Shown piece after piece: positions 2,507 to 55,301 of a stretch of DNA of 64,000 nucleotides. Made by a program: the position numbers and the translations under genes. Origin of the DNA: an uncultured Gammaproteobacteria bacterium (lineage in GTDB: Bacteria; Patescibacteriota; Microgenomatia; UBA10105; UBA927); the NCBI GenBank assembly GCA_964588145.1, contig CAZPNL010000001.1:11306-75305 (forward strand), given 5' to 3'. Numbering within the stretch: position 1 is the stretch's first letter; each line of letters starts with the position of its first letter. Under the pieces are notes generated by a model. It ran no database searches, was not told the DNA's origin, and saw only the letters and a list, made by a program, of their open reading frames with translations.

Positions 2507-4102
2507 ATGAATAGCTATACTAGTGCCATGCTTCGAAAGTATGAAACTTTACTGGCTTTGCTAGTCTGTGTCGTAGTAGTTTTTGCGTCATTATTTCAGA
2601 CGTATGCGTTTGAAGGAGCAAAGCCTGCGGGATATATATCACCGCTTGTGCATGGTTATCAGCCAGACTATTATTATTATCTTTCGCTCATGCAGCAGGG
2701 GGCTGAAGGGAAAATATTAGTAACATCTCGGTATACATCAGAATATTTTGCACCACAGTTTGTCAATACGTTTTTTGTCCTTGCTGGTTTTTTGGGAAGT
2801 GGAGTATTAAGACTATGGATGCCACATGTTTACCTGTTACTTCGAGTGACATTTGGCATATTGGTTTTGTGGGGTGGTTACCGATTGGCAGGACAGCTTT
2901 TTTCTTCGGTATATGTGCGCCTTGGGGCATTTGCACTCATGATAGTAGGCGCTCCGTTTTGGGCAAAACAGGGGGCAATTTTTGTGACATCTGGATCATT
3001 TTGGGCTGAATTTGATCCTGTTGTGCGATTTGTATATTTGCCTCATCATATGGCGGCGATTGTACTCCTCATGTGGGCATTTTATTTGATTCAGACAGCC
3101 AAAACATTTCGAAATTATGTGCTTTCTGGAGTGCTTGGAGCATTGGGAGCATGGTGTAATCCTGCGGTTTTGTTTTTTTATGTTGGAGGGATAGGTATAT
3201 ATGGAGCAGCAAGCATTATTCAGCGCATGCAGCTGAAGATGATTATGCAAACGTTTTTTGTTTTGCTTTTTCCAAGCCTTGTAGTGATAGTCGCCTTTCA
3301 ATTGCTGCAAAATAGTGTATTTCCATGGACAGCGTTTCGAGATTGGGAAGCAGGGATGAGATATGAGCTGAATGGAGTAGGTTTTTTGAATGTTTTGGGC
3401 GTCGTGGGGTATATTGCTCTTCTTGGAATTGTGTTTTGTCTCGGTCAAAAGAATTCGCTTTGGTATTTAGTGATAGGATGGTTTGTCGTACCAATTGTAG
3501 TTTTGACTGTTCCATCCAACCTTTTGCCGCTTAGTAATGCCCGTTTTTTTCAAGGGTTTAGTCATATCCCAGCGGCGCTTTTAGCTGCTGTTGCGATTTC
3601 GAGAATAGTTCGAATTCTTTGGAAGGTGGGGGTGTCTGTGAATGTTTCCCTCATTATTTTTGGCAGTATTTTATCCATAAATGCAATTCCATCGTATATT
3701 GCAAGTTACCAACAGCAAATGGCAAGTGTTGAGCAAGATAGATGGAATATCGTTCAGTATATGTCGCCTGAGGTGTTTGCAACAATGGAAGCATTAACTC
3801 ATCTAGGAAATCATGATGATGTTGTTGTGGCGCCGGGGTGGTTATCTACAATGATTCCTGGAATTACTGACAAGCGAACGATTACAGGACATCCAACGTT
3901 TACTTATGATGGCAATACGAAGGGTGCACATTTGGCTGCCATTGAGCATCCTACGGATATTAGTATTGTTAATGATGTTGCCACAATAGAGCATGTGCGC
4001 TTTATATGGTGGGAAAAATTACAAAATGGTGAACCACTTTATGCCTCAATAGCACAAAAAGTTTATGAAAATGAGAGGTATGCGCTGTATCAATTGTATT
4101 GA
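2507..4102 (+). CDS. polytopic membrane protein, uncharacterised GT-C-like paralog family (member 1 of 5)
   Basis: The track ORF 2456..4102 would overlap the divergent upstream gene, so the in-frame ATG at 2507 is preferred. First-loop motif GYQPDYYYYLSLMQQGAEGKILVTSRYTSE is shared with 4109, 11572, 51988(-) and 53673(-). Many TM helices plus a conserved C-terminal periplasmic domain. Confidence 0.55.
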   Translation: MNSYTSAMLRKYETLLALLVCVVVVFASLFQTYAFEGAKPAGYISPLVHGYQPDYYYYLSLMQQGAEGKILVTSRYTSEYFAPQFVNTFFVLAGFLGSGVLRLWMPHVYLLLRVTFGILVLWGGYRLAGQLFSSVYVRLGAFALMIVGAPFWAKQGAIFVTSGSFWAEFDPVVRFVYLPHHMAAIVLLMWAFYLIQTAKTFRNYVLSGVLGALGAWCNPAVLFFYVGGIGIYGAASIIQRMQLKMIMQTFFVLLFPSLVVIVAFQLLQNSVFPWTAFRDWEAGMRYELNGVGFLNVLGVVGYIALLGIVFCLGQKNSLWYLVIGWFVVPIVVLTVPSNLLPLSNARFFQGFSHIPAALLAAVAISRIVRILWKVGVSVNVSLIIFGSILSINAIPSYIASYQQQMASVEQDRWNIVQYMSPEVFATMEALTHLGNHDDVVVAPGWLSTMIPGITDKRTITGHPTFTYDGNTKGAHLAAIEHPTDISIVNDVATIEHVRFIWWEKLQNGEPLYASIAQKVYENERYALYQLY

Positions 4103-4108
4103 TGGGTT

Positions 4109-5962
4109 TTGATCTACTTTCACATTCTGCAAATATTTCTTACAATGATCTTCATGGCGTCACGATGGCTTTGGATATTATTGTGCTTATTTTTTCTCCA
4201 GTTTTCTCTCTGGCCGATGATGTATGAGATTAATCAGCAAAGCACGCTCCGACCTGAGAGATATTTTGAGCTTGTACATAATTTTCCAACGGATTTTAAT
4301 TTTTATCTGTCGAGAATTCGTGAGGGGATTGAGGGGTCACCTACTGTTGTCGAAAAGTATACTTCTGAGCCGCACAATGGTTCTTATATACATATATTAT
4401 ATTTAGCATTAGGTTGGATAGGAGGATTTGTTCGTGTGCCGTGGCACCTATCCTCAGATGTGTATCATGTGGCACGCACTATATTTGGGTTTACACTTCT
4501 TGTGATGTTTGCAAAGTTTGCAAAACAATCTTTTGCGACGATACGATGGCAGGTATTTGCATTTTTGGTAGCAGTTACTGCTAGTTCGTGGCCAAAATTT
4601 CAGTGGATGGAGGACGGATCTCCCAGGCTAGGTGGCTATATGCCGTGGTGGAGCGTCATGGATAGTTTGCAACGTATTACCTTCATACCACATCTTGTGC
4701 TAGGTCAGGCCTTGATGATATTTTTAGTCCTCGGGTTTTGTAACGATACAGTTCGGACGAAATGGGGGAATTGGATATTTTTGGGTGTGATGGGGTTTGT
4801 TTTGGGAGTGTTTTTTCCTCCGGGGATCATTGTGGTGTGGTGCGTATACGGATTTTATGCGCTTATATCGGCGATATTCCAGCGACAGGGTAAACGGATA
4901 AATATTTTTTCGAAGTTTATAGAATTTGTAGTACCAATGGGTGTTAATGTCATGCTTTCTGTGCCTTCCCTAGTGTATCTAAGTCTCATGACGGGTTTTT
5001 ATCCATGGAAACGACTTGCTGAGTTAGATATTATTAAGCCTTTACCATTTCAATATCAGGAGTATTTTACAGCAGTAGGGCCAGTATTGCCTTTGGGTAT
5101 ATTAGGGCTTTTGTTGGTTATTTGGAAAAGAGAGACGCGACTGTATGTGGCAGTCGCTTGGGTGATGGCATGGGCGTTTTTGCTTGGTATATTTAATTTT
5201 ATCCCGCAGCAAAGCCCTTTGAGGTTTTCGGAAATGATCCCACATTTGCCTTTGGGATTATTGTCTGTTTATGTGATTTATACAGTATATGCATATCTCG
5301 TGCACGTGTTGCGTGTGCAAGGAGTCAGCGGAGTCGGTGTGTCTCGGGCGCACGCGCGGAAGATTACAAACTTTCTTTCTGCTCTTCCTATGACTCTCTT
5401 CGTGCCAATGAAAGAAGTTTCTACAAATGTGCGTCCGGTATTTCTCGCACTTTGGGCATTGTCAATATTATGCGTGATTTATATTGCGCTCTTTTTATTT
5501 TATATGTATTCGTCATATATGTGGCAACATGACTTTGTTGATCATAAGATACGTGCGACATATCCATTGGTTCCACAGGGGAGCTATGTGATGTATCCGT
5601 TGAAAGACTTTGTAAACGCTATTCGATTTATCCAAGACACCACAAAGCGTGAAGAAGTGGTTTTATCTGAGGTAAATACAGGAAATTATATCCCTGTCTA
5701 CAGCGGTAATACTGTATACATAGGACATGACAACACGGTGAAGCTTGAAGAAAAAAAGATGTTTACGAGAGCCTTTTATGCTGGGACCATGAAGCCAGCC
5801 GAAGCACAAGAATTTTTGCAAACAGAACGAATTAGTCGAATATTTTATGGCCCTCTCGAAAAAGAAGATGGGGGACATGCTGATATGTCCAAAGTATATC
5901 CATTTTTGGAAAAAGTGTATGAAAATAGTTATATCATGATTTATAAGCCAAAATTTAATTGA
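4109..5962 (+). CDS. polytopic membrane protein, uncharacterised GT-C-like paralog family (member 2 of 5)
   Basis: 617-aa ORF starting at TTG 4109, with an alternative ATG at 4145. First-loop motif PTDFNFYLSRIREGIEGSPTVVEKYTSEP. The C-terminus ...VYENSYIMIYKPKF aligns with ...VYENERYALYQLY of the upstream paralog. Confidence 0.55.
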   Translation: MIYFHILQIFLTMIFMASRWLWILLCLFFLQFSLWPMMYEINQQSTLRPERYFELVHNFPTDFNFYLSRIREGIEGSPTVVEKYTSEPHNGSYIHILYLALGWIGGFVRVPWHLSSDVYHVARTIFGFTLLVMFAKFAKQSFATIRWQVFAFLVAVTASSWPKFQWMEDGSPRLGGYMPWWSVMDSLQRITFIPHLVLGQALMIFLVLGFCNDTVRTKWGNWIFLGVMGFVLGVFFPPGIIVVWCVYGFYALISAIFQRQGKRINIFSKFIEFVVPMGVNVMLSVPSLVYLSLMTGFYPWKRLAELDIIKPLPFQYQEYFTAVGPVLPLGILGLLLVIWKRETRLYVAVAWVMAWAFLLGIFNFIPQQSPLRFSEMIPHLPLGLLSVYVIYTVYAYLVHVLRVQGVSGVGVSRAHARKITNFLSALPMTLFVPMKEVSTNVRPVFLALWALSILCVIYIALFLFYMYSSYMWQHDFVDHKIRATYPLVPQGSYVMYPLKDFVNAIRFIQDTTKREEVVLSEVNTGNYIPVYSGNTVYIGHDNTVKLEEKKMFTRAFYAGTMKPAEAQEFLQTERISRIFYGPLEKEDGGHADMSKVYPFLEKVYENSYIMIYKPKFN

Positions 5963-5994: not shown

Positions 5995-7269
5995 ATGTGT
6001 ATGAGAAAAAAACAGGCTATTGCCGAAATTTCTTTTGTGCTTTTTTGTTTTTTAGTAGGGATATGGTTTCGTCTCTGGCTTATTCATGGTAATCCTCAGC
6101 CGGTTTTGTATGACCAGGTGGAGTATGAGAACTATGCGAAACGGATGATTGAGGCACCGTTTATGCTTGCTCCTCATAGTTATCGAACGTATCCGTATCC
6201 GCTTTTTATTGTTCTTGTCTATTTGCAAGCAGGAATAGGAAATATTGATGCTGTTTATAATGCGCAAGCTGTTCTGGATAGTTTAAGTGGCGTATTAGTA
6301 TATGTGTTGGTGCGATACGGGTTTGGGCGTACAAAAGAATCACTTCTCTCGCTTGTACTGTACACGTTTAATCCCATAACATCTGGATATGTGGGTGTGT
6401 TACTTTCTGAAGTACTCTCTACTTTTTCGATCATTGCGACACTTGTCGTTGGGCTGTGGTTTTTGAAAAAACCTAATATATGGAGTGGGATTCTCTTTGG
6501 TCTTGTGGCTGGAATTGCAGCTGAGACGCGAAATGCAGCATTTATATGGGCAGGAATACCTATAGCTCTTACGTATTTTTGGATTCGAAAGTCTTTGCAA
6601 TGGATGGCTTATGGGGGCATTTTGCTAGGACTTGCAGCATCAGTGCTGTATCCACTTATCACAAATTATCAAAAATATAGAGAAATCAATATTACGACTG
6701 TTGATAGTTTTTATGCGAAGGAGTTTTATAACGGTGTTATGCTCCGTCAACTCGATCCTTTTACCACTGTGTATCCCCCTGAGACTGCAACAATGTTTTA
6801 TGAATATTATACAGAGCAAAACCCTGAGCGGACGCCTGCCGGACGGAAAGAAATGGCGGATAAATATTTTAAACGCGCGTGGGACTTGATAGTTAAAGAC
6901 CCTTGGGATTATGCCAAGATGCGTGTATTTAAAATGTGGTATATGTGGCAGAAAGAAAATATATTTTTTTATTACGAACCAGAATTTGTATGGAGGAGAT
7001 CCTGGATATATCTGGGAAATTTGCTGCTTTTGGGCATGACTATCGTAGGGCTTGTGCAAACAGTTCGCAGAACAACACATCTTTCTCGATGGACATGGTG
7101 GTCTACTCTAGGGTCTTTAGTTTATGCCACATTTGTATTTAGTTTTAGTCATGCTGAATATCGAATCACAGTGCCGTTTTATCCACTTCTGTTTGCTTTA
7201 GCTGGCATTGGGGTGGGGGCATGTTGGAAAGCTAGTACATATTTGTTTCACAAGCGAGGTATGCAATGA
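5995..7269 (+). CDS. ArnT/PMT-like GT-C glycosyltransferase (GT39/GT83-like)
   Basis: 424-aa polytopic membrane protein. The first loop DQVEYENYAKRMIEAP matches the DExRYAEIAREM signature of ArnT-family lipid-linked sugar transferases. Confidence 0.55.
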   Translation: MCMRKKQAIAEISFVLFCFLVGIWFRLWLIHGNPQPVLYDQVEYENYAKRMIEAPFMLAPHSYRTYPYPLFIVLVYLQAGIGNIDAVYNAQAVLDSLSGVLVYVLVRYGFGRTKESLLSLVLYTFNPITSGYVGVLLSEVLSTFSIIATLVVGLWFLKKPNIWSGILFGLVAGIAAETRNAAFIWAGIPIALTYFWIRKSLQWMAYGGILLGLAASVLYPLITNYQKYREINITTVDSFYAKEFYNGVMLRQLDPFTTVYPPETATMFYEYYTEQNPERTPAGRKEMADKYFKRAWDLIVKDPWDYAKMRVFKMWYMWQKENIFFYYEPEFVWRRSWIYLGNLLLLGMTIVGLVQTVRRTTHLSRWTWWSTLGSLVYATFVFSFSHAEYRITVPFYPLLFALAGIGVGACWKASTYLFHKRGMQ

Positions 7270-9431: not shown

Positions 9432-11575
9432 TATTAATTCCTGTGATTTTGTACTCTGCGATACTGTTTGTCGTACTATTTTCCGTATTATTTTTGGATT
9501 CTCAACATCTATTATTTGGTGATGATATCCATAGGAATTATTATTTTTATCGAACATTTGTCAATCAAAGTCTGTCCGAAGGTAGGCTGCCTCTTTGGAA
9601 TCCTTATATATTTTCTGGTGTGCCCTTTATTGGGAATGCGATTGTAAATTTTTGGTATCCTCTCACGTGGTTGTATGTATTCTTGCCGTTACGTTTGGCT
9701 TTTTCGTGGCATGTGTATGCACACATCCTTTGGGCTATGTGTGGCATGTATGTGTTATTGCGTTCTAAGATGGCTTCCGTGCCTGCATTTATAGGTGGAA
9801 TTTTTTTTGGATTGTCTGGGTTTTTTATGTCTAGAATATGGGCGGGACATATGGATGTGATAGCAGCAGCATCGTATATCCCTTGGAGTTTTACTGCATT
9901 TGATGCTCTTATGCGTGCTGATCGGAAGCATGTACGATCATCGCTTGTGATAGCGAGCGTAGCATTTGCAGCTCAATTGTTTGCTGGGTATCAAACGATG
10001 GCATTTTTTACAGTAGAAGCACTCGGTATCTATATAGTTTGTACAAGTATTTCTTTGAAAAGCCTGCGCCCCTTCCTGCTTTGTGGCATGGCAGGGTTAC
10101 TGGCAATGGGGGCATCCAGTATACAAACTTATCCTGTGCAGGAATTTTTTCGTCAGGGTATACGAACATTTCAGTTTCCTTATGAGTGGATAACGTATGG
10201 ATCGATGACGCTTGAAAGTTTGTGGCAATTGTATGATCCGTTTCATTTTGGAGATCAACATACTTATGCAGGTCCACCACCAAATTATCATGAGCATGCG
10301 GCGTATTTTGGTAAAGTAGGTTTATTTTTCTTTTGCATGAGTCTTTTATGGTTAGTTGTGCAAACGGTTAGACGAAATTTAGGAATCAAAGATCATGTAA
10401 ATCATCGTGAAAAAGGAAATGTAGTATTTTTTGGGTCGATGGTTGCAGTTGCTTTTTTTACCATTTGGATCTCTCTAGGGTCAAATGCAATTGTTGATTT
10501 ACAAAAAATACTATGGCAAATCGTGCCTATGTATCATTATCTTCGATTTCCTCCGAGACATATGGTGCTTTTTGTTTTTTCCGGATCCGTACTGGCAGCA
10601 TATGGTGTATCTTTGCTTAAATATTTCAAAATACAGCTTGTAGTGTTGGTATTAATATTATATGAGTTAATCCCTTATGGGAGACATTTTATCGCAAGTC
10701 AGCTAGTGCCTGAAGATAGACATGATCCATATTTGGTGTCTCAGTTACAGCCCAAAAATGATGAACTCTTTCGTTACTTACCAAATTTTGGTGTATGGCT
10801 TGAGCCGCGCAATAGCATGGATCCTGATGCTGCTATGATGTATGGGCATTTTGATAGTACGGGGTATGATCCATCTATACTAAAATCGTATTACCAATTC
10901 GTTGATGCATCACTGGGGAATGCTACACCGAGCATACTTCAGCATGATGTACAGGTTCCATATATGAATTTAGGTAGCAGCTCTGTGGATTTTCTCAATA
11001 TTAAATACGTTTTATTGCCTACGTTTGCAGATACACTGCATGGTGTCGTATCAAAATATCGGCTTGTGAAAGAGGATTTGGAACGACAATATAGATTGTA
11101 TGAAAATACTCAGGTGCTCCCACGGTTTTATTTTGTTGATCAGGCACGTTACTTTTCTACGTCAGAAGCAGTGTATGCTGAAATCGCCTCAGGATTTTCC
11201 AAATATGCCCACGAAGTCCTCATTGAAGGAGCAGTTGAGCTTGTTAAGCCGTGCACAACTATCAGTCCGGGAAGCGTATCTATCATTTCGTATACAAATA
11301 ATGAGATTGTTCTTCAAACATCGAGAGAATGTCCTGGTTACTTAGTATCCAGTGAAGTATATTATCCTGGTTGGTCTGCTCGTATAGATGGAGTTCCAAC
11401 GAATATATACAAAAGTAATTTGTCGTTTCGAAGCGTATTGTTGCCACAAGGTACTCATAGAGTAGTCTTTTCCTATCAGCCAATCAGTGTATGGATTGGA
11501 GCTGCGGTCACAGGGATTACGATATTACTCCTATACTATCTGTGGAAACATCCAGAAAACACAGGATTACTATGA
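9410..11575 (+). CDS. YfhO-family membrane glycosyltransferase-like protein (tandem paralog)
   Basis: Start moved to ATG 9410 (MVKKAFLILIP...). Its N-terminus LLFGDDIHRNYYFYRTFVNQ aligns with the upstream paralog's MLFGDDIDRLSYFWISFFNQ. The C-terminus SEVYYPGWSARIDGVPTNIYKSNLSFRSVLLPQGTHRVVFSYQP carries the YfhO signature. Confidence 0.65.
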   Translation: MVKKAFLILIPVILYSAILFVVLFSVLFLDSQHLLFGDDIHRNYYFYRTFVNQSLSEGRLPLWNPYIFSGVPFIGNAIVNFWYPLTWLYVFLPLRLAFSWHVYAHILWAMCGMYVLLRSKMASVPAFIGGIFFGLSGFFMSRIWAGHMDVIAAASYIPWSFTAFDALMRADRKHVRSSLVIASVAFAAQLFAGYQTMAFFTVEALGIYIVCTSISLKSLRPFLLCGMAGLLAMGASSIQTYPVQEFFRQGIRTFQFPYEWITYGSMTLESLWQLYDPFHFGDQHTYAGPPPNYHEHAAYFGKVGLFFFCMSLLWLVVQTVRRNLGIKDHVNHREKGNVVFFGSMVAVAFFTIWISLGSNAIVDLQKILWQIVPMYHYLRFPPRHMVLFVFSGSVLAAYGVSLLKYFKIQLVVLVLILYELIPYGRHFIASQLVPEDRHDPYLVSQLQPKNDELFRYLPNFGVWLEPRNSMDPDAAMMYGHFDSTGYDPSILKSYYQFVDASLGNATPSILQHDVQVPYMNLGSSSVDFLNIKYVLLPTFADTLHGVVSKYRLVKEDLERQYRLYENTQVLPRFYFVDQARYFSTSEAVYAEIASGFSKYAHEVLIEGAVELVKPCTTISPGSVSIISYTNNEIVLQTSRECPGYLVSSEVYYPGWSARIDGVPTNIYKSNLSFRSVLLPQGTHRVVFSYQPISVWIGAAVTGITILLLYYLWKHPENTGLL

Positions 11576-13203
11576 ATCTTAGATTGCGACATATAGGAAG
11601 AAACATATTGGCAACACCTCGTAGTCTTTGGCTATTTACTTTTGTTGTCGTTGTTTTGGGGATGACGGGGACACTCGTGGAATGGTTTATGACTCCAGCT
11701 ACTCGAGTATACGGAGGATATCATGGATTTTCCCCTGATTATATAGGGTATGTATCTTATATTAAGCAGGGAAGCGTTGGGGGATGGTATATGACTTTTC
11801 GGTCTTACCCTCTGGATCAACCATTTACTTTTATCCATATTTTTTATACGTTCATGGGAAAAATTGGCGGTGTATTTACATTTTCTGCTCCACTAATCTA
11901 TCATTTGAGTAGAGCCATACTTGGAGTTGTGTTAATTTTTGTGACATACAGGTTTTATAAGATATTTTTGTCACACACAAATGCCATGATTGGTTTAGTA
12001 GGTGCATATGTGTTGACTCCCATAGGGTGGCTTGCTTCACAAAATGGTGTTTGGAATGTGCAACGACTAGCTGTTTTTCCTTTTGCTCAAAATTGGGTGG
12101 AGAGGATTACCACCAGGCCTCATTATATTGCTGGATCCATAGTGTTTATATTAATTTTTGAAGTAGTTCTTCGTATGCCATATAAATCGGGGCTATATAA
12201 AATAGGTGCTGTATTGGCACTTTTAGGAGCAAGCTTAAGTATAATCCACCCATCGTTTGGTATCTTGTGTGCAGTCGTACTTGTTGCGATCCTTAGTTTC
12301 AATACTTTGAGATTGAAAATAAAGCCTATTGTGCAGATGCATATCCTTTTTGGGCTTATTGGTGTGATAGTAGGTTTAGGACTCATATATTGGTCAATAC
12401 TGAGACAACAAGCCTACGGCATAAAGTGGCTTGATGCATATGTGTATACGGATATGTTCAATTTTGAAAGTATTAAAACAACTATATTGGCTATCGGACC
12501 GCTGCTATGGTTTGGATTTATAGGATTGATGTGGTCGATCAGGAAAAAAGATAGTAACTACGTGCATGTATGGCTTTGGATTGTCTTGCAGCTTGTGTTA
12601 TTTGTGTATGGATATAAATTTATCAACTCTGATAGAGTACGTTTTTTACAGGGGTTATATTTTGTTCCACTCGGTTTAGGATTTGCACTTTTTATTGAAA
12701 AGATTCGTCAAATTTTTCATCATCACGTGGCAGCTTTAGCCCTAGCTATTTGCATATTGTTGTCAGTGCCTTGCATTGTAGATGATTTAAAGCGAGGGAT
12801 AGGGGAGTATACGGATTTTGCTGACTTTAGTATTGCGACATTCCCTTCAAGATTTATGTATGACGCATACAAATATCTTAATGATCACTCACCTGTTGAA
12901 AGTGTGGTCATAGCTCGGTGGGAGGCAAGTAGTAATCTCATGCTTTTTAGTCACAATAGAGTGCTAGGAAATACGATCGCGTGGCCTGAAGAAGCAGGAA
13001 AAATTATGGATCACCAAAAAGATATTTTTTTTACAGCAACACTTTCTGAAGAAGATGCGCTAAAATATTTAGATTCTTATAATGTGCAATATATATATTA
13101 TGGATATCAAGAAAAATCATTAGGTGATATATCTCGGTATTCGTTTGTCCATCCAATATTTGAAAATCAAGATGCGACGATTTTTGAGGTAAAACGAAGC
13201 TGA
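11572..13203 (+). CDS. polytopic membrane protein, uncharacterised GT-C-like paralog family (member 3 of 5)
   Basis: Start at ATG 11572 overlaps the upstream stop (ATGA). First loop GFSPDYIGYVSYIKQGSVGGWYMTFRSYP. Conserved C-terminal domain. Confidence 0.55.
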   Translation: MNLRLRHIGRNILATPRSLWLFTFVVVVLGMTGTLVEWFMTPATRVYGGYHGFSPDYIGYVSYIKQGSVGGWYMTFRSYPLDQPFTFIHIFYTFMGKIGGVFTFSAPLIYHLSRAILGVVLIFVTYRFYKIFLSHTNAMIGLVGAYVLTPIGWLASQNGVWNVQRLAVFPFAQNWVERITTRPHYIAGSIVFILIFEVVLRMPYKSGLYKIGAVLALLGASLSIIHPSFGILCAVVLVAILSFNTLRLKIKPIVQMHILFGLIGVIVGLGLIYWSILRQQAYGIKWLDAYVYTDMFNFESIKTTILAIGPLLWFGFIGLMWSIRKKDSNYVHVWLWIVLQLVLFVYGYKFINSDRVRFLQGLYFVPLGLGFALFIEKIRQIFHHHVAALALAICILLSVPCIVDDLKRGIGEYTDFADFSIATFPSRFMYDAYKYLNDHSPVESVVIARWEASSNLMLFSHNRVLGNTIAWPEEAGKIMDHQKDIFFTATLSEEDALKYLDSYNVQYIYYGYQEKSLGDISRYSFVHPIFENQDATIFEVKRS

Positions 13204-18793: not shown

Positions 18794-18796
18794 GCT

Positions 18797-38424: not shown

Positions 38425-38425
38425 T

Positions 38426-38947
38426 ATGGATGTATTTATTACTATTTTGACAATTAGTATCGTTATACTATTTTTATTGGTACAGCTGGTGGTGCACAGG
38501 GTATTTTCGCAGAAAAATGTCATTCGGCTGATACTAGTGTCATACTGCATAACTTTATTGGTTAGCATTTTCGTATGCGTTGGGTATATTTTGATGCGTT
38601 TTATTGAAATACAGAGTTTTAGCGTGTGGATGGCGATTGGAGTTTCATTCTTTTTGGGTTCACTTTGGATTCTTGACTATATTACCGGTTTTTTTGGATT
38701 ACCAATTTCTTCTCTTCGTATCAAATTACTGAGCGATATTGCCCGTGCCGGAGACAGAGGAATCTCTGATAAAAAGCTACTGTCAGGGTATAACAAAAAA
38801 GAAATTATTGCGGTACGGCTAGACAGGCTTGTGCGGGCGGGGGAGCTTGTGGAAAATAAGGGTTCGTATGTGTTAACACGTGGATATTCATATTTGCGTT
38901 TGCATGCATTCATGCACCGTGTACTTCGACGTGTATATAATGGGTAA
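38426..38947 (+). CDS. small membrane protein: 3 TM helices + C-terminal winged-helix-like domain (member 4 of 4)
   Basis: ATG 38426 lies 1 nt after the upstream stop. MDVFITILTISIVILFLL... The C-terminal part is LRIKLLSDIARAGDRGISDKKLLSGYNKKEIIAVRLDRLVRAGELVENKGSYVLTRG. Confidence 0.55.
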   Translation: MDVFITILTISIVILFLLVQLVVHRVFSQKNVIRLILVSYCITLLVSIFVCVGYILMRFIEIQSFSVWMAIGVSFFLGSLWILDYITGFFGLPISSLRIKLLSDIARAGDRGISDKKLLSGYNKKEIIAVRLDRLVRAGELVENKGSYVLTRGYSYLRLHAFMHRVLRRVYNG

Positions 38948-41432: not shown

Positions 41433-41532
41433 CCTGGTGGGCTGTAGCTCGTAGCCTGTAGGAAGATAGCCAGTAGCCAGTAAGAAAGTAGCCATTAGGA
41501 AGGTAGCTGGTTAGCATGTAGCGGGTAGCTGG
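41430..41532. repeat. degenerate 7-8-bp tandem repeat (TAGCNNG / TARGAAGN units, ~13 units, ~22-bp higher-order period) in the spacer between transketolase N and C subunit genes
   Basis: Read directly: tagcctgg tgggctg tagctcg tagcctg taggaaga tagccag tagccag taagaaag tagccat taggaagg tagctggt tagcatg tagcggg tagctgg. It begins at the TK-N stop codon. TAG recurs in all three plus-strand frames. Confidence 0.6.
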
Positions 41533-41664
41533 TGAAGGGCGAAGCGGAAGTAAACATTACTATATTTGAATGAGGCAGTAGGATTCTACTTATAAAGTGA
41601 TTTTACATATTTAAAGTTGGATTGAAAGTTTGCATTTTAATAGTTGCATGTTGCATTTCTAATT

Positions 41665-42642
41665 ATGCGTAAAACAGTACTGACTGAAACTTATAAATTA
41701 GCAAAAAAAGATAAACGTGTGGTGTTTGTTGGCTCAGACTTGGGAGCAGGGACACTTGACGAGTTTAAAAAAGAAATGCCTGAGCGGTTTTTTATGGAAG
41801 GCGTGTCCGAACAACACATCATTGGACAAATGGCTGGTATGGCTACCAATGGAAAAATTCCATTCTTTAATACCATCGCTGTTTTTTTGACACGTCGATG
41901 TCTCGAGCAAATTATTATTGATGTGGCTTTGCCAAATTTGCCTGTGCGACTTCTGGGAAGTGGTGGAGGACTTGTCTATGCACCGCTTGGGCCTACACAT
42001 CTAGCTATCGATGATATTTCCATAATGCGAGGGATACCAAATATGACCATACTGGTGCCTGCTGATGCTACGGAGATGGAACGGCTAATGCCACAAACAC
42101 TTGAGCATCGTGGACCAATTTATATTCGTATAGCTAAAGGGGGAGACCCAGTGGTAACCCCACCTGATATGCCTTGTATTATCGGGAGAGGAATGCCTAT
42201 GAAAAAAGGCGAAGATGTATTACTCATTAGTACAGGGACTACATTACAATTGGCGATTGAGGCAGCCTCAATATTAAAACTAGATAGTATCGATGCGGCA
42301 GTGCTCCATATGCCAACTATAAAACCTTTTGATCGAGAGCTTGTGGTAGATATGGCTGCCAAGGTGCGAGGGATTGTTACAATTGAAGAGGCATTTGTCC
42401 ATGGAGGATTAGGTTCTGTCGTAAGTGAAGTTGTGGCTGATGCGCGGTATAGTAAGCCAAAGCCAATACTGCGGATAGGGATTCCTGATGTATTCCCTGA
42501 TAAATATGGTTCGCAATCTCAACTTTTGGCATACTACGGCATAACGACAGAGAGAGTTGTTGATGCAGCCAAGAGACTTATAGGTAATGAAACGACTATG
42601 ATTGCGCGATCAAACGTAAGAAAAAAACCCATAAAGCGTTAA
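41665..42642 (+). CDS. transketolase, C-terminal subunit (second copy)
   Basis: MRKTVLTETYKLAKKDKRVVFVGSDLG aligns with the N-terminus of 23108..24040. ATG 41665 is preferred over the TTG 41644 track start. Confidence 0.7.
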   Translation: MRKTVLTETYKLAKKDKRVVFVGSDLGAGTLDEFKKEMPERFFMEGVSEQHIIGQMAGMATNGKIPFFNTIAVFLTRRCLEQIIIDVALPNLPVRLLGSGGGLVYAPLGPTHLAIDDISIMRGIPNMTILVPADATEMERLMPQTLEHRGPIYIRIAKGGDPVVTPPDMPCIIGRGMPMKKGEDVLLISTGTTLQLAIEAASILKLDSIDAAVLHMPTIKPFDRELVVDMAAKVRGIVTIEEAFVHGGLGSVVSEVVADARYSKPKPILRIGIPDVFPDKYGSQSQLLAYYGITTERVVDAAKRLIGNETTMIARSNVRKKPIKR

Positions 42643-48495: not shown

Positions 48496-49293
48496 ATGAT
48501 TTGGATTATTTTGCCTGTGTATAATGAGGAAAAAAATTTGGTTGGGGTCCTTGACGCCATAGGAGTAACTCTCAAAGACGAGTCTCATCGTGTTGTTGTA
48601 GTCAACGACGGAAGCACTGACAGGACTGCATCGATATTGGCAAATATAAAGGATCGCAGAATATCTACCATAAGCTATCCATTAAATGGAAATATTGGTA
48701 CGGCTTTTTCTAACGGCATAGAATTTGTTCTGGCTCATGGTAAAAAAACAGATGTTGTTGTAATTATGGAATCAGACGGAACCAGTGATGTGTCGCTGTT
48801 ACGACAGTTTGTGACTACGCTACACACTACAAATGCAGATGTTTGTATCGCGTCGCGCTACCAGAAGGGCGGAAGATATGTCCATTTTCCATTTGGCCGC
48901 ATGCTTACCAGTGCTTTGGCAAATTATAGTTTGCGTACTCTTTTCCCTATAGCGGGTGTCAAAGACTATACGATTTTTTACCGTGCGTATAGAGTGGGTA
49001 TGTTGCACTATGCAACGACTGTTTTTAGTTCATATGGATTGATACGGGGTACGGGATTTGTGGCAAATGCGGAGCTGCTTGTAAAATTAGCATTTTTGGG
49101 GGCACATGTCTGCGAAATACCACTTGTATATGATTATGGAAACAAAAAAAGTAGAAGCAAGATGGGGGTAGTAAAAACAATCTTTGAATATTTATTTATC
49201 ATTATACATTTTTATGCTATACAAGAAGCTCTCGTCATAAGAAGTGTCGGCAATCAACTTCCTAAATATTTTGCCAAAAAAGTAGTAGAGTAG
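48496..49293 (+). CDS. GT2 glycosyltransferase, DPM1/polyprenol-phosphate-sugar synthase-like
   Basis: MIWIILPVYNEEKNLVGVLD ... VVVVNDGSTDRTASIL. 265 aa. Confidence 0.65.
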   Translation: MIWIILPVYNEEKNLVGVLDAIGVTLKDESHRVVVVNDGSTDRTASILANIKDRRISTISYPLNGNIGTAFSNGIEFVLAHGKKTDVVVIMESDGTSDVSLLRQFVTTLHTTNADVCIASRYQKGGRYVHFPFGRMLTSALANYSLRTLFPIAGVKDYTIFYRAYRVGMLHYATTVFSSYGLIRGTGFVANAELLVKLAFLGAHVCEIPLVYDYGNKKSRSKMGVVKTIFEYLFIIIHFYAIQEALVIRSVGNQLPKYFAKKVVE

Positions 49294-49300: not shown

Positions 49301-50593
49301 ATGAGGGTACAAAGGTATATAAATTTTTCATCAAAATTTATACTTCTTTTATTGTTTTTTTTGGTCGTGGGAATTGCGCTCAGGCTGTTTATGCTTTTGT
49401 ATGCCACTACGGCACTCATGTGGGACAGTTGGATTAATAGTGATTATGCGGTGCAGCTGATGACTGGGCATGTAATCGCTGACCCACGCGATCGTAATTT
49501 GGGATATTCTGCTTTTTTAATGATCGTCTATGCATTTTTTGGTTATGAAAATATATACGCAGTACAGATCGTGCAGGTATTGCTCGACGTATATATTGGA
49601 ATTATTATTTTTACTACCACAGCTGGGATGTTTTCAAAAAAAATTGCGAGTTACTCATTTGCCTTGTACATGATCAATCCATACACAGCATCTTACACTG
49701 GGATGATATTTTCTGAGATTTTTACTATATTTTTATTTTGCTCTACTGCGTATGTCATTAGTCTTGAACAGTTTCGGTATCAAGTTCGCTTGTGGATACT
49801 ATACGGTTTTTTGTTGGGCTGGATAATATTTGTGCGACAGCAGTTTGTGTTTTTTTCTTTTTTTATATCATTTGTGATAGGTATTTTGGTAATACCCAAA
49901 AAGAAAATTATATTATTTCTTTTGTCAACCTATATTTCTCTTCTTGTGGCAAACAGCTATACGCTCTACTCGTATTGGTACAACTATAAACAGATTTCAT
50001 TATCGCCTCCGTATAATGTAAAAAATGCTGCACTGTATCTGATGTTTGAGATGTCTCGTCAAACGCCATCTCTGATAGACGATAAAAGTGGAACAGGTTA
50101 TTTTTCTCGTATGGACGATGCATATGTGCATATTGTAAATGAGTATTATGCTACTCCTCTTGAGCAGATGAGTGCATTTCAAGATAAATATACTACGTTA
50201 TTTATAGAAAGATTGCGTTTGGACTGGCAAGTATTTGTCACAAGGATTATTCGAAATGTGTTTTTGATTTGGGATAAATATTATCTGTGGTATTACGTTG
50301 ACGAGTGGTATCCGATAGACAAAATTCCTGTGCGATTGGGTAATATTGTGTATGTAGGAATTAGTTTTTTGGGACTTTTACGTATTTGGCTTTTTAATGT
50401 GAGATTGCGTCGTCATCCAGTCACGGTTTTTAGTTTAGGTATGGTGCTATATATGACGATTGTGTTTAGTCTCGTGTCATCGGAGCCTAGGCATACGCTC
50501 GCATATTATGGTATATGCGCAATTTGGCTTGGGTATCAGGTGCGCGAATTTGTGCAGCATTTGCCTCAGTGGGGGTTCAGGTCGAATGTGTAG
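49301..50593 (+). CDS. polytopic membrane GT-C-like protein (ArnT/PMT-like first loop)
   Basis: 430 aa with ~11 TM helices. First loop MWDSWINSDYAVQLMTGH resembles the DE-x-RYA-x-I-A-x-x-M pattern. Confidence 0.45.
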   Translation: MRVQRYINFSSKFILLLLFFLVVGIALRLFMLLYATTALMWDSWINSDYAVQLMTGHVIADPRDRNLGYSAFLMIVYAFFGYENIYAVQIVQVLLDVYIGIIIFTTTAGMFSKKIASYSFALYMINPYTASYTGMIFSEIFTIFLFCSTAYVISLEQFRYQVRLWILYGFLLGWIIFVRQQFVFFSFFISFVIGILVIPKKKIILFLLSTYISLLVANSYTLYSYWYNYKQISLSPPYNVKNAALYLMFEMSRQTPSLIDDKSGTGYFSRMDDAYVHIVNEYYATPLEQMSAFQDKYTTLFIERLRLDWQVFVTRIIRNVFLIWDKYYLWYYVDEWYPIDKIPVRLGNIVYVGISFLGLLRIWLFNVRLRRHPVTVFSLGMVLYMTIVFSLVSSEPRHTLAYYGICAIWLGYQVREFVQHLPQWGFRSNV

Positions 50594-51986
50594 CGTTTTG
50601 TGTTTTCTTTGTTGTAACGCGCCTAACTGTTCGTATCATAAACAATATTCCATTGACTGAAAGTAACACCATGATTGGATAAAATGGCATGATATATCGG
50701 GCATCAGGATAGGCAAACATCGCAATTGGGATTTTACCCAGTATGATAATGCCGCTTAGTAATCTCATATATACATTTCCAAAAACTATCCCTATCAAAA
50801 GGGACGGAAAAAAAATCCATACAGACCATATGGGAAAAATGTGTAAATTTATCCAATCGCTCAGTTGTAAATATGACTTCCATGTCGTATATGTGTGTGC
50901 AGTTTGAATCATGGGTGTGCACATGGTAAATTTTCCCAGTGGATCACAGTTAACTGGATATATATTGGATGGAGGATTTGCATCTTGAGTATACTGCAAA
51001 TTAGGCCACCAGGGACTGCCAGAGCGGTGTGATTGAAAAAAATTATATACTGTGAGCCGTGCGAAATCTATAGGGTATGTTTTGATAGCGGCAAGTCCCA
51101 CATTTCCTAATACTCTATCGATCGTATGCCAATCAAATCCAATTTTTTTAAAGAAATATGGCTCCATTTCCCAATATGGTTGATAGAGATCAACGCCAAT
51201 TGGTACGTATTTGCGAAGTTCGATCATAGAAGGATCAGTTTCGGGAGGAAGTCTTTTTGCAACCGAAACCATCTGTATATGATAGCGAACAGACTGTGTA
51301 CTGCTTAAGCCAAAAATCCCGGTAATATGGGTTTGAATTATGATCCATGCTCCTATGCTGGCTAGCCCTATGATAGGTAGTGCATATGATTTTGGGTGGA
51401 TTTTTGGTTTGTGCCAGAGAAACAGGGCAAGTGCTACTATGCCATATACGAGAAATGCATATTTCCACAAGCTACTTAGAAATCCAAACCATGTCAGGAG
51501 TGATAGATAATGTATTTTTTTGGTAACTGTCCAGAGATATAAAATAAAAATATAGACCGTGAGTACTAATTGAGCTGTAATGTCAGTCATCAGATATGAG
51601 ATGAATACCAGATTAGCCGGTAAGAGCGCATGTATGCAGCTTACGATAACTGCATACTCGTAGCCGATCATAGGTTTTAGTATTTTATATAAAAGTAACG
51701 TTGTTAGCCCTAGTGTGACTATTTGGATGAAGTGAAGTGAAATATCGGCGCGTGGGACATACTGTAGTAGCGCCAGAAGTACACTGTATAGCGGGGGTTC
51801 GCCTGTGGGTACAAAGCTGTAGGGATGTGCGCCATAATTTGGCACAAATTCTCCAGTCTTGAAATACCATGACAATACCCACGAGAACCAGCTATCAACA
51901 TTGCTATTTATCCACGCAAAAAAGAAATGAAAAAAACCTATAGCAATCGTGAAAATTATAGTAGTATGCGCAATATTTTTGAGCAT
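50577..51986 (-). CDS. polytopic membrane GT-C-like protein
   Basis: 469 aa with many TM helices. First loop NVDSWFSWVLSWYFKTGEFVPNYGAHPYSF. Confidence 0.45.
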   Translation of the reverse strand: MLKNIAHTTIIFTIAIGFFHFFFAWINSNVDSWFSWVLSWYFKTGEFVPNYGAHPYSFVPTGEPPLYSVLLALLQYVPRADISLHFIQIVTLGLTTLLLYKILKPMIGYEYAVIVSCIHALLPANLVFISYLMTDITAQLVLTVYIFILYLWTVTKKIHYLSLLTWFGFLSSLWKYAFLVYGIVALALFLWHKPKIHPKSYALPIIGLASIGAWIIIQTHITGIFGLSSTQSVRYHIQMVSVAKRLPPETDPSMIELRKYVPIGVDLYQPYWEMEPYFFKKIGFDWHTIDRVLGNVGLAAIKTYPIDFARLTVYNFFQSHRSGSPWWPNLQYTQDANPPSNIYPVNCDPLGKFTMCTPMIQTAHTYTTWKSYLQLSDWINLHIFPIWSVWIFFPSLLIGIVFGNVYMRLLSGIIILGKIPIAMFAYPDARYIMPFYPIMVLLSVNGILFMIRTVRRVTTKKTQNATHST

Positions 51987-51987
51987 A

Positions 51988-53676
51988 TTAATCCATCAAT
52001 TTATATATTCGGATTTTTTCGTTTTCATAGCCAATTGTCACATATTTCATTGCTGTAGTGGGAACGCGACTATTGGTTGGACTTGTGATAATATAGCCGA
52101 TTCTATGATTTGGAAAAAAAGACTGAATTTCGTCTTCGCTCATTGCATTAGTAAAAAATCTGTTTCGTAGACTCTCTTTTACATCTGGGTAAAGCGTGTG
52201 CAGTGGGTGTCCAAGGAAGGATATTTTTTCTGTAAATACTGGGATAAGAATTTCTACTCGCAACACATCGTCAGAGAGAACAACCTTTTTGTTTTCTGGC
52301 TCATTTTGATTTTTAAGCCAGGCAAATGCATCGATAAAATCATTTGGAACATGATTGTATTGGGTGTCCATCAACAACCAGTAATTCTCAAAAGGTGTTA
52401 TACGATTTGATATTTGTTTGTAATTGGCGGGTATTGTGTGCAAGAGATATATGCTAAATGCACTTAATAACGCTAATGTTTTTAGAAATCGCAATGTATG
52501 TAAAAATGGGATATTCAGTACAAGCTGGGGAATTTCAATAATACCAATTGCTGCTACAACTGAGAGAAATCCGTGGGAGATAGGGTGAAAAAATCGTATC
52601 GGAGACGCACCTATAAGGCTTGGTAGGGGAGAATAGTAGAGGCCAATAGCTGAAAGTGCATAGAGTGCAAAGGTTTTTGCAGTCGTATTTGCTTTATAAA
52701 AATATCGATATAAGCCAAATGGTATAAAGAGCATAATGGGGCCATGAGACTGAAAAAAGTGTGAAAATTCTCTGGGGACTTGCTGGTAAAGTTCCCATGT
52801 TTTTGCTGCAGCAAAAGGTGCTAGAGATAGCTCCACAGAAGTTATGTAAGCGACGGGGAGAGATATGATACCGGTGATTGTGATGGGAATAAGAAGTCGA
52901 AGATTATTATGACGAAGAGTTTGCCACAGTGATAGTATGCCTGCCCCTATCAAGAGCGCCATAGCTTGCATGGGGTAGGCTGACGTAATGATGATTGTTA
53001 ACAATATTTGTGTACTGTAGGTGCGCACATTTTGTTTTTCTAAAAGTTTGGCAAAAGAGATAATAAATAAAATGATAATTATAGATTGGAAAACTTGATG
53101 GGGTACACCTCCTAACCTCCAAAATGATGGTGTGGGGGAAAACCATAATTTATCAGGAAATCGTATGACCCCGTGATAAAAGAGGTTTTCTAGAGATATA
53201 AAAGGTGATGCAGTGAGAATAATAAAAAGACTAAGCAATCGCTTCGTTTTGGAAAGAGGAAAAATTTTTGTAAGGAGTATATGCCACATGGTAATGAGCG
53301 TTACAACAAGAAGCATGAGAGAGATGTTGTAGGAACCAAATGGATCTAGCCCTACCAGATGACCTAAAAATCCAATTGTGGCGTTTTGCCAATATAGCCA
53401 AGTAGTTCTTTGCGGTTCATTGGTAAATAAAAAATTTGTTAGTATTTTTCCTTCTGCGCCCTCCGCCATTTGATAGGTATAGAGAAAATAGTCAGCAAAA
53501 TAGTGGGTTATGGCAGTAAAATAGTAACCGGGTGGATTTGATACCCATTGGATAATAACTTGGAGTGAATTTAAGAATGTAAAAATAAGAGTTAGCGCAG
53601 TGACTATAAGTCGTTCATCATGTTTTTTGATACATGTCTTAATGCTCTGTAGATGCAATGGGTCAAACTGTTTCAT
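51988..53676 (-). CDS. polytopic membrane protein, uncharacterised GT-C-like paralog family (member 4 of 5)
   Basis: First loop YFADYFLYTYQMAEGAEGKILTNFLFTNEPQ. A C-terminal periplasmic domain is shared with the family. Confidence 0.55.
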   Translation of the reverse strand: MKQFDPLHLQSIKTCIKKHDERLIVTALTLIFTFLNSLQVIIQWVSNPPGYYFTAITHYFADYFLYTYQMAEGAEGKILTNFLFTNEPQRTTWLYWQNATIGFLGHLVGLDPFGSYNISLMLLVVTLITMWHILLTKIFPLSKTKRLLSLFIILTASPFISLENLFYHGVIRFPDKLWFSPTPSFWRLGGVPHQVFQSIIIILFIISFAKLLEKQNVRTYSTQILLTIIITSAYPMQAMALLIGAGILSLWQTLRHNNLRLLIPITITGIISLPVAYITSVELSLAPFAAAKTWELYQQVPREFSHFFQSHGPIMLFIPFGLYRYFYKANTTAKTFALYALSAIGLYYSPLPSLIGASPIRFFHPISHGFLSVVAAIGIIEIPQLVLNIPFLHTLRFLKTLALLSAFSIYLLHTIPANYKQISNRITPFENYWLLMDTQYNHVPNDFIDAFAWLKNQNEPENKKVVLSDDVLRVEILIPVFTEKISFLGHPLHTLYPDVKESLRNRFFTNAMSEDEIQSFFPNHRIGYIITSPTNSRVPTTAMKYVTIGYENEKIRIYKLMD

Positions 53677-55301
53677 AGTTTTACCTGATATAGAATAGCA
53701 GAAGGATTTTGATAATACACTTTGAGAAATGGATAGATACGCGTTAAATCAATTTGAGACTCATATTTTGTTTGCAAAATATACCTAATATGTTGGCTTT
53801 GTAAAAGTTCCAAGGTACTAGTAGGGTCTTTAGATCCTGCTAATATTTGTTCAGCGATAGGATTTTTTTGATACAGATCTGTTGTGGCGAGAAAATGACC
53901 TGTAAAGCTTGTGTGTCCACTGAGGGCGGGACCCAGTAGATCCATATGTGATGTGGGGGATGCAATGAATGCATTATTGTAATTGGTGTCTTTGGAAAGT
54001 TCGAGGAACGCGTTGTAAATATTTGAGTCTACATACATCAAGGGTTGTGCGTAGTTAGTTGTTTGTATTTTTTGTTGAACTTCCCAGATTAGTGTAGGTG
54101 CACTAAATATAATAAAAATAGCTGCAAATGTTGGATAAATCCACGCATGCCAACTGGGAAATCTATTGATAATAAATTGTTTTATCCATATATATGATTG
54201 TATGGAAAAATACCCTAAAAATATACTTGTTGCGGGGAATAGAAGTCGGAGATTTGAGAAGCCTAATGTTTTGGGTATTGGAGAGAGAAATGCTCCATAT
54301 GTGCATACAATAAGAACCATGCCAAATGTTTCAAACCACGTTTGTCCTTTTTTAAGAGTAAATACAAATGCAATGAGCGTGAGGTAGCTTGCAGGACCTA
54401 TGGAGAGTAGGAGGAAAGGCAGATCAGTATAGCCCTGTTGTGATGCTTCCCAAATTTTTGATTGGATATGTGGTTGTTGGCTCAGAAAATAAGAAGTGAG
54501 CGCAAAAGCAAATATACATCCGATTGTACTTCCGATCATGAGAGTATGCGAGAGGAATGACGGCCTACGCTTTAGTATTACAATTTGGATGATACCTGTT
54601 ACCCACATCGCGCCCATGTATACGCCTGCCTGTATTGGGTTTAAAGTTGTTAATAGTGCTAATGCAATGATGGCTAGGAGCCAATAGGATTTGTGTTGAT
54701 TTGATTTTATGAGACTTAATAAAAATATATGTGCAAATATGGTTTGTGTAAGTTGATGGGGGGCGCCACCGAGTCGGTCAAATGCAAAATGCGGCGTTCG
54801 CCATATTTGAAATGGCCAATAAACTATGCCTTTATCTGGAGTATGAATTCTGTTCATGATGGATGTTGAGCATGTGCTTATGATGAAAGCTAGGAGTATA
54901 AGTTTGGAATTGTGGGGAAGGAGTATGTGTAATACTTTTGCAGATAATAAGAGCATGATCCAGGCTAGGATAATAAGTGAGAGGTTGTATGATGCGAACT
55001 GATCTAGTCCCAATACGCCTCCAGTTTTGCCAAGGAGGACATTTGACCAATAGATAAAACTAGGAAGTGTTGGCTCTGTCGTATATTTATTGTGTGTGAG
55101 CCATCCTCCGTGTGCGCCTTGAAAAAAATGATTGAGGTAGAAAAAATAATCTTCATAATAATGTGTTGTTGCAAGAAACACTGTCTGTGGGGGCTGTTTT
55201 GAGATTGCTGTAAAAAAATGTGACACATTTAGAAGTGATACAACCGTACTCATGAGAATGATACTCATCCATATTTTTTTCATACGCATATGAGAGGCCA
55301 T
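53673..55301 (-). CDS. polytopic membrane protein, uncharacterised GT-C-like paralog family (member 5 of 5)
   Basis: First loop HYYEDYFFYLNHFFQGAHGGWLTHNKYTTEP. 4-bp overlap with the downstream paralog. Confidence 0.55.
   Translation of the reverse strand: MASHMRMKKIWMSIILMSTVVSLLNVSHFFTAISKQPPQTVFLATTHYYEDYFFYLNHFFQGAHGGWLTHNKYTTEPTLPSFIYWSNVLLGKTGGVLGLDQFASYNLSLIILAWIMLLLSAKVLHILLPHNSKLILLAFIISTCSTSIMNRIHTPDKGIVYWPFQIWRTPHFAFDRLGGAPHQLTQTIFAHIFLLSLIKSNQHKSYWLLAIIALALLTTLNPIQAGVYMGAMWVTGIIQIVILKRRPSFLSHTLMIGSTIGCIFAFALTSYFLSQQPHIQSKIWEASQQGYTDLPFLLLSIGPASYLTLIAFVFTLKKGQTWFETFGMVLIVCTYGAFLSPIPKTLGFSNLRLLFPATSIFLGYFSIQSYIWIKQFIINRFPSWHAWIYPTFAAIFIIFSAPTLIWEVQQKIQTTNYAQPLMYVDSNIYNAFLELSKDTNYNNAFIASPTSHMDLLGPALSGHTSFTGHFLATTDLYQKNPIAEQILAGSKDPTSTLELLQSQHIRYILQTKYESQIDLTRIYPFLKVYYQNPSAILYQVKL

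Follow-up and report, generated by a model that had tools for sequence, protein, structure and literature searches.

In the present study, we analysed a window of 64,000 nucleotides (nt) (contig CAZPNL010000001.1 of assembly GCA_964588145.1, positions 11,306 to 75,305 of the forward strand) and five membrane-protein genes within it, here called A, B, C, D and E. It is very probable that these genes are diverged paralogs of an unnamed family of integral-membrane glycosyltransferases (GTs) with the GT-C fold, belonging to Microgenomates-type bacteria of the Candidate Phyla Radiation (CPR). This is a new, unnamed family within a well-known superfamily, and its twist is an ancestry of the oligosaccharyltransferase (OST) type without the WWDYG motif, combined with a minimal core of 11 transmembrane (TM) helices. 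In the structural models, each protein consists of this 11-helix membrane core and an outer C-terminal alpha/beta domain of about 125-140 amino acids (aa). Paralogy, fold, topology, residue conservation, the homology of the C-terminal domain and the absence of WWDYG were all computed here.

Exactly five genes of the window are full-length, co-linear paralogs of one another. In BLASTP, the full-length alignments reached 140 bits for D-E, 67 for A-B, 57 for both A-C and B-E and 55 for B-C, and the remaining pairs given were B-D (53), C-E (47), A-D (40) and A-E (39). Nothing comparable was obtained between the five and 11 other large membrane proteins of the window. Furthermore, a hidden Markov model (HMM) of the family, run against all open reading frames (ORFs) of the window with at least 250 aa, recovered exactly these five (E=4e-129 for A). 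The tandem copies at two loci that the original prediction described were confirmed: the pair A-B is separated by about 48 kb from the pair E-D, and C stands alone. Each paralog is 35-49% identical to its own orthologs elsewhere (37-43% in the case of A) and about 20-26% identical to its siblings in the window. Because the orthologs are closer than the siblings, comparison of the sequences indicates that the five copies are ancient and separately maintained lineages, and the same identities rule out a recent duplication. A chance or compositional likeness of hydrophobic proteins was also ruled out, by the motif statistics given below, the co-linear full-length alignments and the lineage-specific orthologs. 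Of 13 distinct loci in other genomes, about 10 have another family member directly after the E-type gene. In Gottesmanbacteria RIFCSPLOWO2_01_FULL_43_11b (locus L016, 1939-7515), three family members were found within 5.6 kb, and another locus (L010) has a family pair in divergent orientation; therefore, the copy number and arrangement of the family vary among genomes.

All five proteins share a motif in the first loop, D-[YF]-x-x-[YF]-x5-6-G-x-x-G, which stands shortly after the first hydrophobic helix. A D-Y/F-x-x-Y first loop had been claimed for the five ORFs, and each of the five peptides quoted for it is present where it was listed. When all 88 six-frame ORFs of at least 100 aa (25,685 residues) were scanned with the pattern D[YF]..[YF].{5,6}G..G, exactly five occurrences were found, once per gene; shuffled versions of the five proteins gave 0.0115 motif-bearing proteins per set of five. 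Conservation was examined in an alignment of 127 diverse relatives, which are 14-35% identical to E, and residues are numbered as in E. The loop-1 aspartate (D51) was invariant in 127 of 127 relatives, as was G91. Conservation of at least 90% was found for Y55, G62, G65, Y105, R176, P181, H182, P222, G302, R352, P458 and G468. Position 76 is acidic in 89% and position 285 in 90% of the relatives, and K479 is basic in 94%. The R-x4-P-H motif formed by R176, P181 and H182 is kept at 96% (R), 99% (P) and 94% (H), and R352 is identical in 96% and basic in 98%. All conserved charged residues, R352 included, are on the predicted outer face.

D51, R176, P181/H182, G302 and R352 are kept in all five lineages. 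The copy that diverges most is C; E76, K479, G468/H469 and T473 have been lost from about half of the members of its lineage, so that this lineage partly lacks E76 and the conserved residues of the C-terminal domain, which suggests, from the sequences, a changed acceptor site there. The lack of several C-terminal-domain residues in the C lineage would also suit GT-C-derived proteins that do not catalyse and act as acceptor-binding or scaffolding subunits with an active partner, or in the handling of the lipid carrier. The E-D and A-B pairing, conserved across genomes, could reflect obligate heteromers of this kind, and according to a speculation in a review, acceptor binding by small GT-C enzymes may depend on partner proteins (PMC8035078). 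We consider such a non-catalytic role very improbable, since an invariant Asp with conserved outer-face Arg, His and Arg in all five lineages is the pattern expected of active enzymes, and the putative catalytic set has been lost in none of them.

The fold was predicted by AlphaFold2 with high confidence for E (80-sequence alignment; mean predicted local distance difference test score (pLDDT) 96.3, predicted template modelling score (pTM) 0.94) and for B (118-sequence alignment; pLDDT 94.5, pTM 0.94). When the model of E was compared with the PDB by Foldseek, 21 of 21 matches at E<0.01 were GT-C glycosyltransferases. The best was AftA (8if8, 2e-7), and STT3 of the yeast and human OSTs (8agb/8pn9; template modelling score (TM-score) 0.55), DPY19, AglB, PglB, AftD and ArnT were also significant. 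For B, all 28 matches at E<0.03 were GT-C, with PglB (5ogl, 6e-9) at the top, followed by STT3. The topology predicted from the helices and loop charges has 11 TM helices, an inner N-terminus and an outer C-terminus, and the cytoplasmic loops are all short and basic. The first outer loop of E (residues 34-100) contains two helices, 49-63 and 85-96, and D51 starts the first of them. As described in the AftA paper, the GT-C core has 11 core helices, a phosphate-binding Arg, an essential Asp in a long first outer loop of two crossed helices and an alpha/beta C-terminal domain that covers the active site (PMC10265970). The modelled proteins have the helix arrangement of the structural class GT-C_A and its two-helix first outer loop with a conserved acidic residue.

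The idea that the acidic and aromatic residues of loop 1 mark a GT-C site is therefore supported, at the level of the models, by the GT-C-only significant matches together with the invariant Asp, and no match to a non-glycosyltransferase family was obtained. Among the structures that the original prediction had named for comparison, PglB, AftD and ArnT were matched; PMT and Emb were weak, and no relationship to YfhO was found. As multi-pass membrane proteins in a glycan locus, the five could also be thought of as Wzy-, WaaL- or SEDS-type (shape, elongation, division and sporulation) polymerases or ligases, or as transporters, with a superficial likeness to GT-C, and FtsW does appear among the non-significant Foldseek matches (E about 1). 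This explanation is extremely improbable in our view, because every significant structural match is GT-C, and the transporters and SEDS proteins among the matches all have E above 0.05 and TM-scores of 0.1-0.2. In addition, two hallmarks of GT-C are present, namely a first outer loop of two helices that bears an invariant Asp and a C-terminal domain of the OST type.

The soluble C-terminal domain noticed earlier is real and can be aligned across all five proteins, as in VYENERYALYQLY versus VYENSYIMIYKPKF. It led beyond the original prediction, as the closest characterised relatives of the family, found through this domain, are the OSTs. A profile of 40 C-terminal domains matched 3vu0 (3.4e-5) and 3vgp (4.5e-3) in the PDB, followed by STT3A (about 0.06) and yeast STT3 (2LGZ, 1.7). 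The full-length 127-sequence profile gave 3VU0 at 5.6e-6, 3VGP at 5.5e-4 and 2LGZ at 0.12; in an earlier profile of 80 sequences, 3VU0 stood at E=0.22. The three profiles were built separately. These entries are AfAglB-S2 (3VU0) and AfAglB-S1 (3VGP), and the matched C-terminal unit of OSTs, called 'CC', bears the WWDYG and DK/MI motifs (PMC3703281). The matching stretch covers about 85 residues, and judged from this profile similarity the C-terminal domain is homologous to the CC unit. In the profile alignment, a family strand 'VVL' and a variable, non-conserved loop stand opposite the OST segment 'VLSWWDYGNWI', and WWD[YWFN]G was found in 0 of 213 family members. Since a variable loop stands where OSTs read the sequon with WWDYG, an N-X-S/T peptide is an improbable acceptor. 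Pfam STT3 matched neither the five proteins (E<=1), nor 163 other full-length relatives (E<=0.01), nor 40 isolated C-terminal domains (E<=1). Instead of DXD, one invariant Asp with Tyr or Phe after it stands in loop 1, and the outer end of TM4 carries R-x4-P-H. A DK/MI motif was not recognisable, and variants of it are hard to see without structures (PMC3703281). The homology of the C-terminal domain and the fold, without WWDYG, therefore make these proteins relatives of OSTs and not OSTs themselves.

The likeness to the OST catalytic subunits STT3, AglB and PglB (GT66), and especially to A. fulgidus AglB-S1/S2, includes the GT-C fold with TM-scores of about 0.5-0.55, a similar size, an N-terminal membrane domain followed by an outer C-terminal alpha/beta domain, and an acidic residue then aromatics at the start of outer loop 1. 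We also weighed the explanation that the five are genuine OSTs, which would transfer a glycan en bloc from polyprenyl diphosphate to proteins such as S-layer proteins or pilins through a degenerate or alternative recognition loop. Foldseek places OST catalytic subunits first for B and near the top for E, the similarity of the C-terminal domain to the C-terminal units of AglB-S1/S2 and STT3 is significant, and with 520-620 aa the family is near the shortest known OSTs (591 and 593 aa; PMC3703281). A non-significant hhalign alignment, discussed below, also places R352 on R375 of PglB. We nevertheless judge genuine OSTs to be unlikely. WWDxG is absent from all 213 members, Pfam STT3 fails throughout, loop 1 lacks the DXD pair, and the model has 11 rather than 13 TM helices. 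The family also differs from OSTs in its membrane domain, for which no similarity to them could be detected in sequence. Furthermore, the small GT2 genes of the window are abundant, whereas an initiating phosphoglycosyl transferase or Wzx-type flippase was not found in it, and a five-fold ancient paralogy is better suited to stepwise sugar addition than to en-bloc transfer.

Other characterised enzymes share the fold. AftA, the priming arabinofuranosyltransferase of mycobacteria (GT85; 8IF8), resembles the family in its 11-TM core, loop-1 Asp (essential in AftA) and C-terminal alpha/beta domain, and it has a phosphate-binding Arg (PMC10265970), for which R352 and R176 are candidate counterparts in the family. 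AftA works in an extracytoplasmic assembly pathway with multiple GT-C enzymes, as the present locus would. In contrast, AftA has two extra N-terminal helices, its identity is 11-12% with no match at the sequence level, and its donor is decaprenyl-P-arabinofuranose; no arabinose pathway was seen in the window. The C-mannosyltransferase DPY19 (GT98) and ArnT, the aminoarabinose transferase of lipid A (GT83), which use monophosphate-linked single-sugar donors, were significant in Foldseek, and the C-terminal domain of one family member weakly matches Pfam Dpy19 (7.8e-5). They differ by having 13 TM helices and motifs of their own, and Pfam PMT_2 and Dpy19 miss the five proteins. DUF6541 (PF20176), an uncharacterised family of membrane proteins, was the sole recurring Pfam family, matching 3 of the 163 full-length relatives (weakly, best 1.7e-10) and 2 of 40 C-terminal domains; apart from one Dpy19 match, nothing else recurred in the 163. 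It is probably a sister family, from which the five proteins differ in giving no match at E<=1. The gathering cut-off is 29 bits, and the relative whose match was looked at closely (P0054) stays below it with 25.9 bits, over profile positions 175-232 of 646. By hhalign, the family showed a remote profile-profile similarity to the PMT_2-like GT-C proteins of the window (85% probability over TM2-TM10); with its four YfhO-type proteins there is no relationship (4% probability), and a Pfam YfhO match was absent.

Several points weigh against the reading of these genes as a GT-C glycosyltransferase family with the donor and residues proposed below. TM-scores of about 0.5 with identities of 9-15% mean likeness at the level of the fold, and the membrane domain in the full-length profile had no significant match to a solved GT-C among PDB sequences. 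D51, H182, E285 and R352 are equated with catalytic residues of PglB, AglB or AftA by their position in the secondary structure. The hhalign alignment of the family profile with a single PglB sequence, which was verified against 3RCE, is co-linear and puts R352 on PglB R375, but its probability is 0.9%, so it is non-significant and can be taken as a lead only. The homology with OSTs leaves a diphosphate-linked oligosaccharide donor possible. Finally, the matches of the small GT2 enzymes to lipid-linked families are far below the NCBIfam cut-offs and stand beside matches to non-lipid GT2 families, and a GtrA-type flippase was not found in the window.

The family is large and has escaped annotation. 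HMMER with a five-sequence profile was run against 1.84 billion representatives of 50%-identity clusters and yielded 5,261 proteins at E<=1e-3, 3,469 at E<=1e-10 and 1,153 at E<=1e-30. The named members retrieved by word-indexed searches are all 'hypothetical' proteins from Candidatus Gottesmanbacteria, Woesebacteria, Microgenomates and the 'Patescibacteria group'. The original prediction had left the family unrecognised, and Pfam and NCBIfam scans of the five proteins agreed, with no match at E<=1. Searches of the literature yielded nothing relevant on DUF6541/PF20176, on GT-C enzymes in these phyla or on glycosyltransferases of Gottesmanbacteria.

By analogy with characterised GT-C enzymes, we infer catalysis, the type of donor, the acceptor and the roles of the residues, and a monophosphate-linked single sugar is the favoured donor. 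Cytoplasmic small GT2 enzymes of the locus would load unusual sugars onto polyprenyl phosphate, and the lipid-linked sugar would be flipped across the membrane and enter the groove of the 11-helix core laterally. D51 may activate the acceptor nucleophile as a catalytic base, alone or with a metal, or may itself be a metal ligand. The lipid phosphate or a metal could be held by R352 on the outer face and by R176/H182 at the TM4 end on the same side, and the C-terminal domain would cap the site and help to select the acceptor. The five lineages may correspond to five donor/acceptor specificities, that is, to different sugars or acceptor positions; different specificities are probable because the five copies are ancient and separately conserved. 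The conserved tandems may carry out sequential steps or form heteromers. Joined by the 12 other GT-C genes of the window, the five would build or modify a complex glycan or glycoprotein of the cell surface on the outer side of the membrane. A glycoprotein of the surface or a polysaccharide of the wall could serve as the acceptor.

A bolder proposal, which is rather doubtful at present, is that the family is a CPR-wide offshoot of the OST lineage in which the WWDYG pocket was swapped for another acceptor site and the tandem pairs (E-D, A-B) act as heteromers like Pmt1-Pmt2 or EmbA-EmbB, in an undescribed extracytoplasmic glycosylation of proteins or the cell wall, making a new GT family in CAZy. 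In known multi-component systems, the polyprenyl-linked sugar (C55-P-sugar) is made by a GT2 enzyme, in some cases together with a distinct small membrane protein; after flipping, a GT-C enzyme passes the sugar on at the outer side (PMC8035078). The window resembles the CsbB/GtcA/YfhO and GacI/GacJ/GacK/GacL systems in that small GT2 genes adjoin GT-C genes, and a duplicated module described below resembles the GacI/GacJ arrangement (PMC8035078). Unlike in those systems, a GtrA or Wzx flippase was not detected, there are 17 GT-C genes, and the family is unrelated to YfhO in sequence.

In its gene content, the window amounts essentially to a single glycan factory. The 17 GT-C-like genes (five of the family, four YfhO-type and eight PMT_2-like), which lie between 764 and 63240, occupy 29,801 nt, or 46.6% of the window, a density that is exceptional for an organism whose genome is probably about 1 Mb. 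In the number of its GT-C genes, the locus is reminiscent of the extracytoplasmic pathways for arabinan and mannan in mycobacteria. Pfam PMT_2 was above its cut-off in 2 of the 8 PMT_2-like neighbours, not in the other 6, and did not match the five paralogs. Two PMT_2-like proteins of about 425 aa, encoded at 5995-7269 and 49301-50593 (+), are paralogs of each other (BLASTP 2.8e-15); the former has no Pfam match and the latter a sub-threshold PMT_2 match only, so they may be another poorly covered GT-C subfamily.

Five small GT2 genes gave sub-threshold NCBIfam matches that include the polyprenyl-phosphate sugar synthases PpgS, PgfS, ArnC and dolichyl-P-hexose transferase, and for the gene at 48496 the best of these were PpgS, PgfS and dolichyl-P-hexose transferase. 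A duplicated three-gene module, 34500-36179 and 37199-38947 (+), consists of a small GT2 and two small membrane proteins, with identities between the copies of 41% for the GT2 pair (34500/37199), 30% for 35210/37780 and 28% for 35679/38381. The small membrane proteins have C-terminal soluble tails that look winged-helix-like and belong to no Pfam family, except for a weak HTH_45 match on 37780. They could be GacJ-like partners in polyprenyl-P-sugar synthesis or, because no GtrA-family flippase was found in the window, flippases. An initiating phosphoglycosyl transferase, Wzx and Wzy gave no match among the ORFs scanned in the window.

The locus also encodes NDP-sugar (nucleoside diphosphate sugar) epimerases/dehydratases, short-chain dehydrogenases/reductases, an HldE-like enzyme, a sugar C-methyltransferase, TylF-type O-methyltransferases and several split transketolase/E1-type enzymes. 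The HldE-like bifunctional protein (15216-16754, +) has a reversed domain order, with the nucleotidyltransferase (rfaE domain II) at residues 19-123 and the sugar kinase (rfaE domain I) at 193-506, and it suggests that the locus produces an activated sugar of the heptose type. Three split pairs of thiamine-diphosphate enzymes, resembling E1 alpha/beta or N- and C-terminal halves of transketolase, are at 17825-19897, 22094-24040 and 40590-42642 (+), and they adjoin an NDP-sugar C-methyltransferase-like gene (19904-21109). TylF-type O-methyltransferases are encoded at 30993-31745 and 36195-36956, both on the minus strand. The thiamine-diphosphate and methyltransferase genes hint at branched-chain and methylated sugars. 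Embedded among the GT-C genes is a further gene (59189-60784, +) for a protein of 531 aa with no Pfam family, in which a Ser/Thr/Pro/Lys-rich N-terminal region of about 95 aa is followed by one hydrophobic helix and a large C-terminal domain. This protein could serve as a substrate for glycosylation or have an accessory role.

The coordinates of the features are given in the table. The original prediction had set the starts of A and C at 2507 and 11572, which are internal ATG codons of longer ORFs; the second agrees with the database gene call (P0081, 543 aa) and overlaps the stop codon of the upstream YfhO-type gene (ATGA), and for A the database call starts at 2528 (P0001, 524 aa). In the database, B is called from 4220 onwards (P0245, 580 aa), which would remove TM1; since TM1 is present in all other family members, an upstream ATG is the likelier start. 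B also contains about 50 additional aa, inserted between TM10 and TM11. In the second tandem, the start of D overlaps the stop of E by 4 nt (ATGA), and a PMT_2-like GT-C gene (50577-51986) lies 1 nt downstream of D.

Table. Positions in the window of the five paralogs, their motifs and domains, and neighbouring glycosyltransferase genes
Feature	Positions	Strand	Remarks
Paralog A	2456..4102	+	548-aa maximal ORF, TTG start; likely start ATG 2507 or 2528
Paralog B	4109..5962	+	617-aa maximal ORF; likely start ATG 4145 or 4154
Paralog C	11491..13203	+	570-aa maximal ORF; likely start 11572
Paralog D	51988..53676	-	562 aa (P0080)
Paralog E	53673..55301	-	542 aa (database call P0008, 538 aa); first gene of the E-D tandem
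Loop-1 motif of A, DYYYYLSLMQQGAEG	2666..2710	+	aa 71-85; proposed catalytic Asp D71
Loop-1 motif of B, DFNFYLSRIREGIEG	4292..4336	+	aa 62-76; Asp D62
Loop-1 motif of C, DYIGYVSYIKQGSVG	11737..11781	+	aa 83-97; Asp D83
Loop-1 motif of D, DYFLYTYQMAEGAEG	53449..53493	-	aa 62-76; Asp D62
Loop-1 motif of E, DYFFYLNHFFQGAHG	55107..55151	-	aa 51-65; Asp D51
R-x4-P-H motif of E	54756..54776	-	R176, P181, H182; outer end of TM4
R-x4-P-H equivalent of A	3026-3046	+	
R-x4-P-H equivalent of B	4673-4693	+	
R-x4-P-H equivalent of C	12103-12123	+	
R-x4-P-H equivalent of D	53098-53118	-	
C-terminal extracytoplasmic alpha/beta domain of E	53676..54062	-	aa 414-542
C-terminal domain of A	3725-4099	+	
C-terminal domain of B	5534-5959	+	
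C-terminal domain of C	12805-13200	+	
C-terminal domain of D	51991-52395	-	
YfhO-type genes	7266, 9377, 24044(-), 31864		
PMT_2-like genes	764(-), 5995, 46766(-), 49301, 50577(-), 56325, 57767, 61690		
Small GT2 gene	48496..49293	+	candidate maker of the lipid-linked donor; link by co-location only
Other small GT2 genes	30254-30982, 34500-35219, 37199-37912, 63237-63935		

With these results, a family of about 5,260 clusters gains a usable annotation label, namely GT-C linked to the OST lineage. For glycobiology it is a candidate new GT family, in which D51, R176, H182, E285 and R352 are the residues to mutate; GT136 was founded in 2024 from one characterised GT-C enzyme (PMC11127046). The locus with its 17 GT-C-like genes is a target for studies of extracytoplasmic glycan assembly outside Actinobacteria. 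The CPR/Patescibacteria are ultra-small, mostly uncultured and attached to other cells, and surface glycans are likely to be central to their lifestyle.

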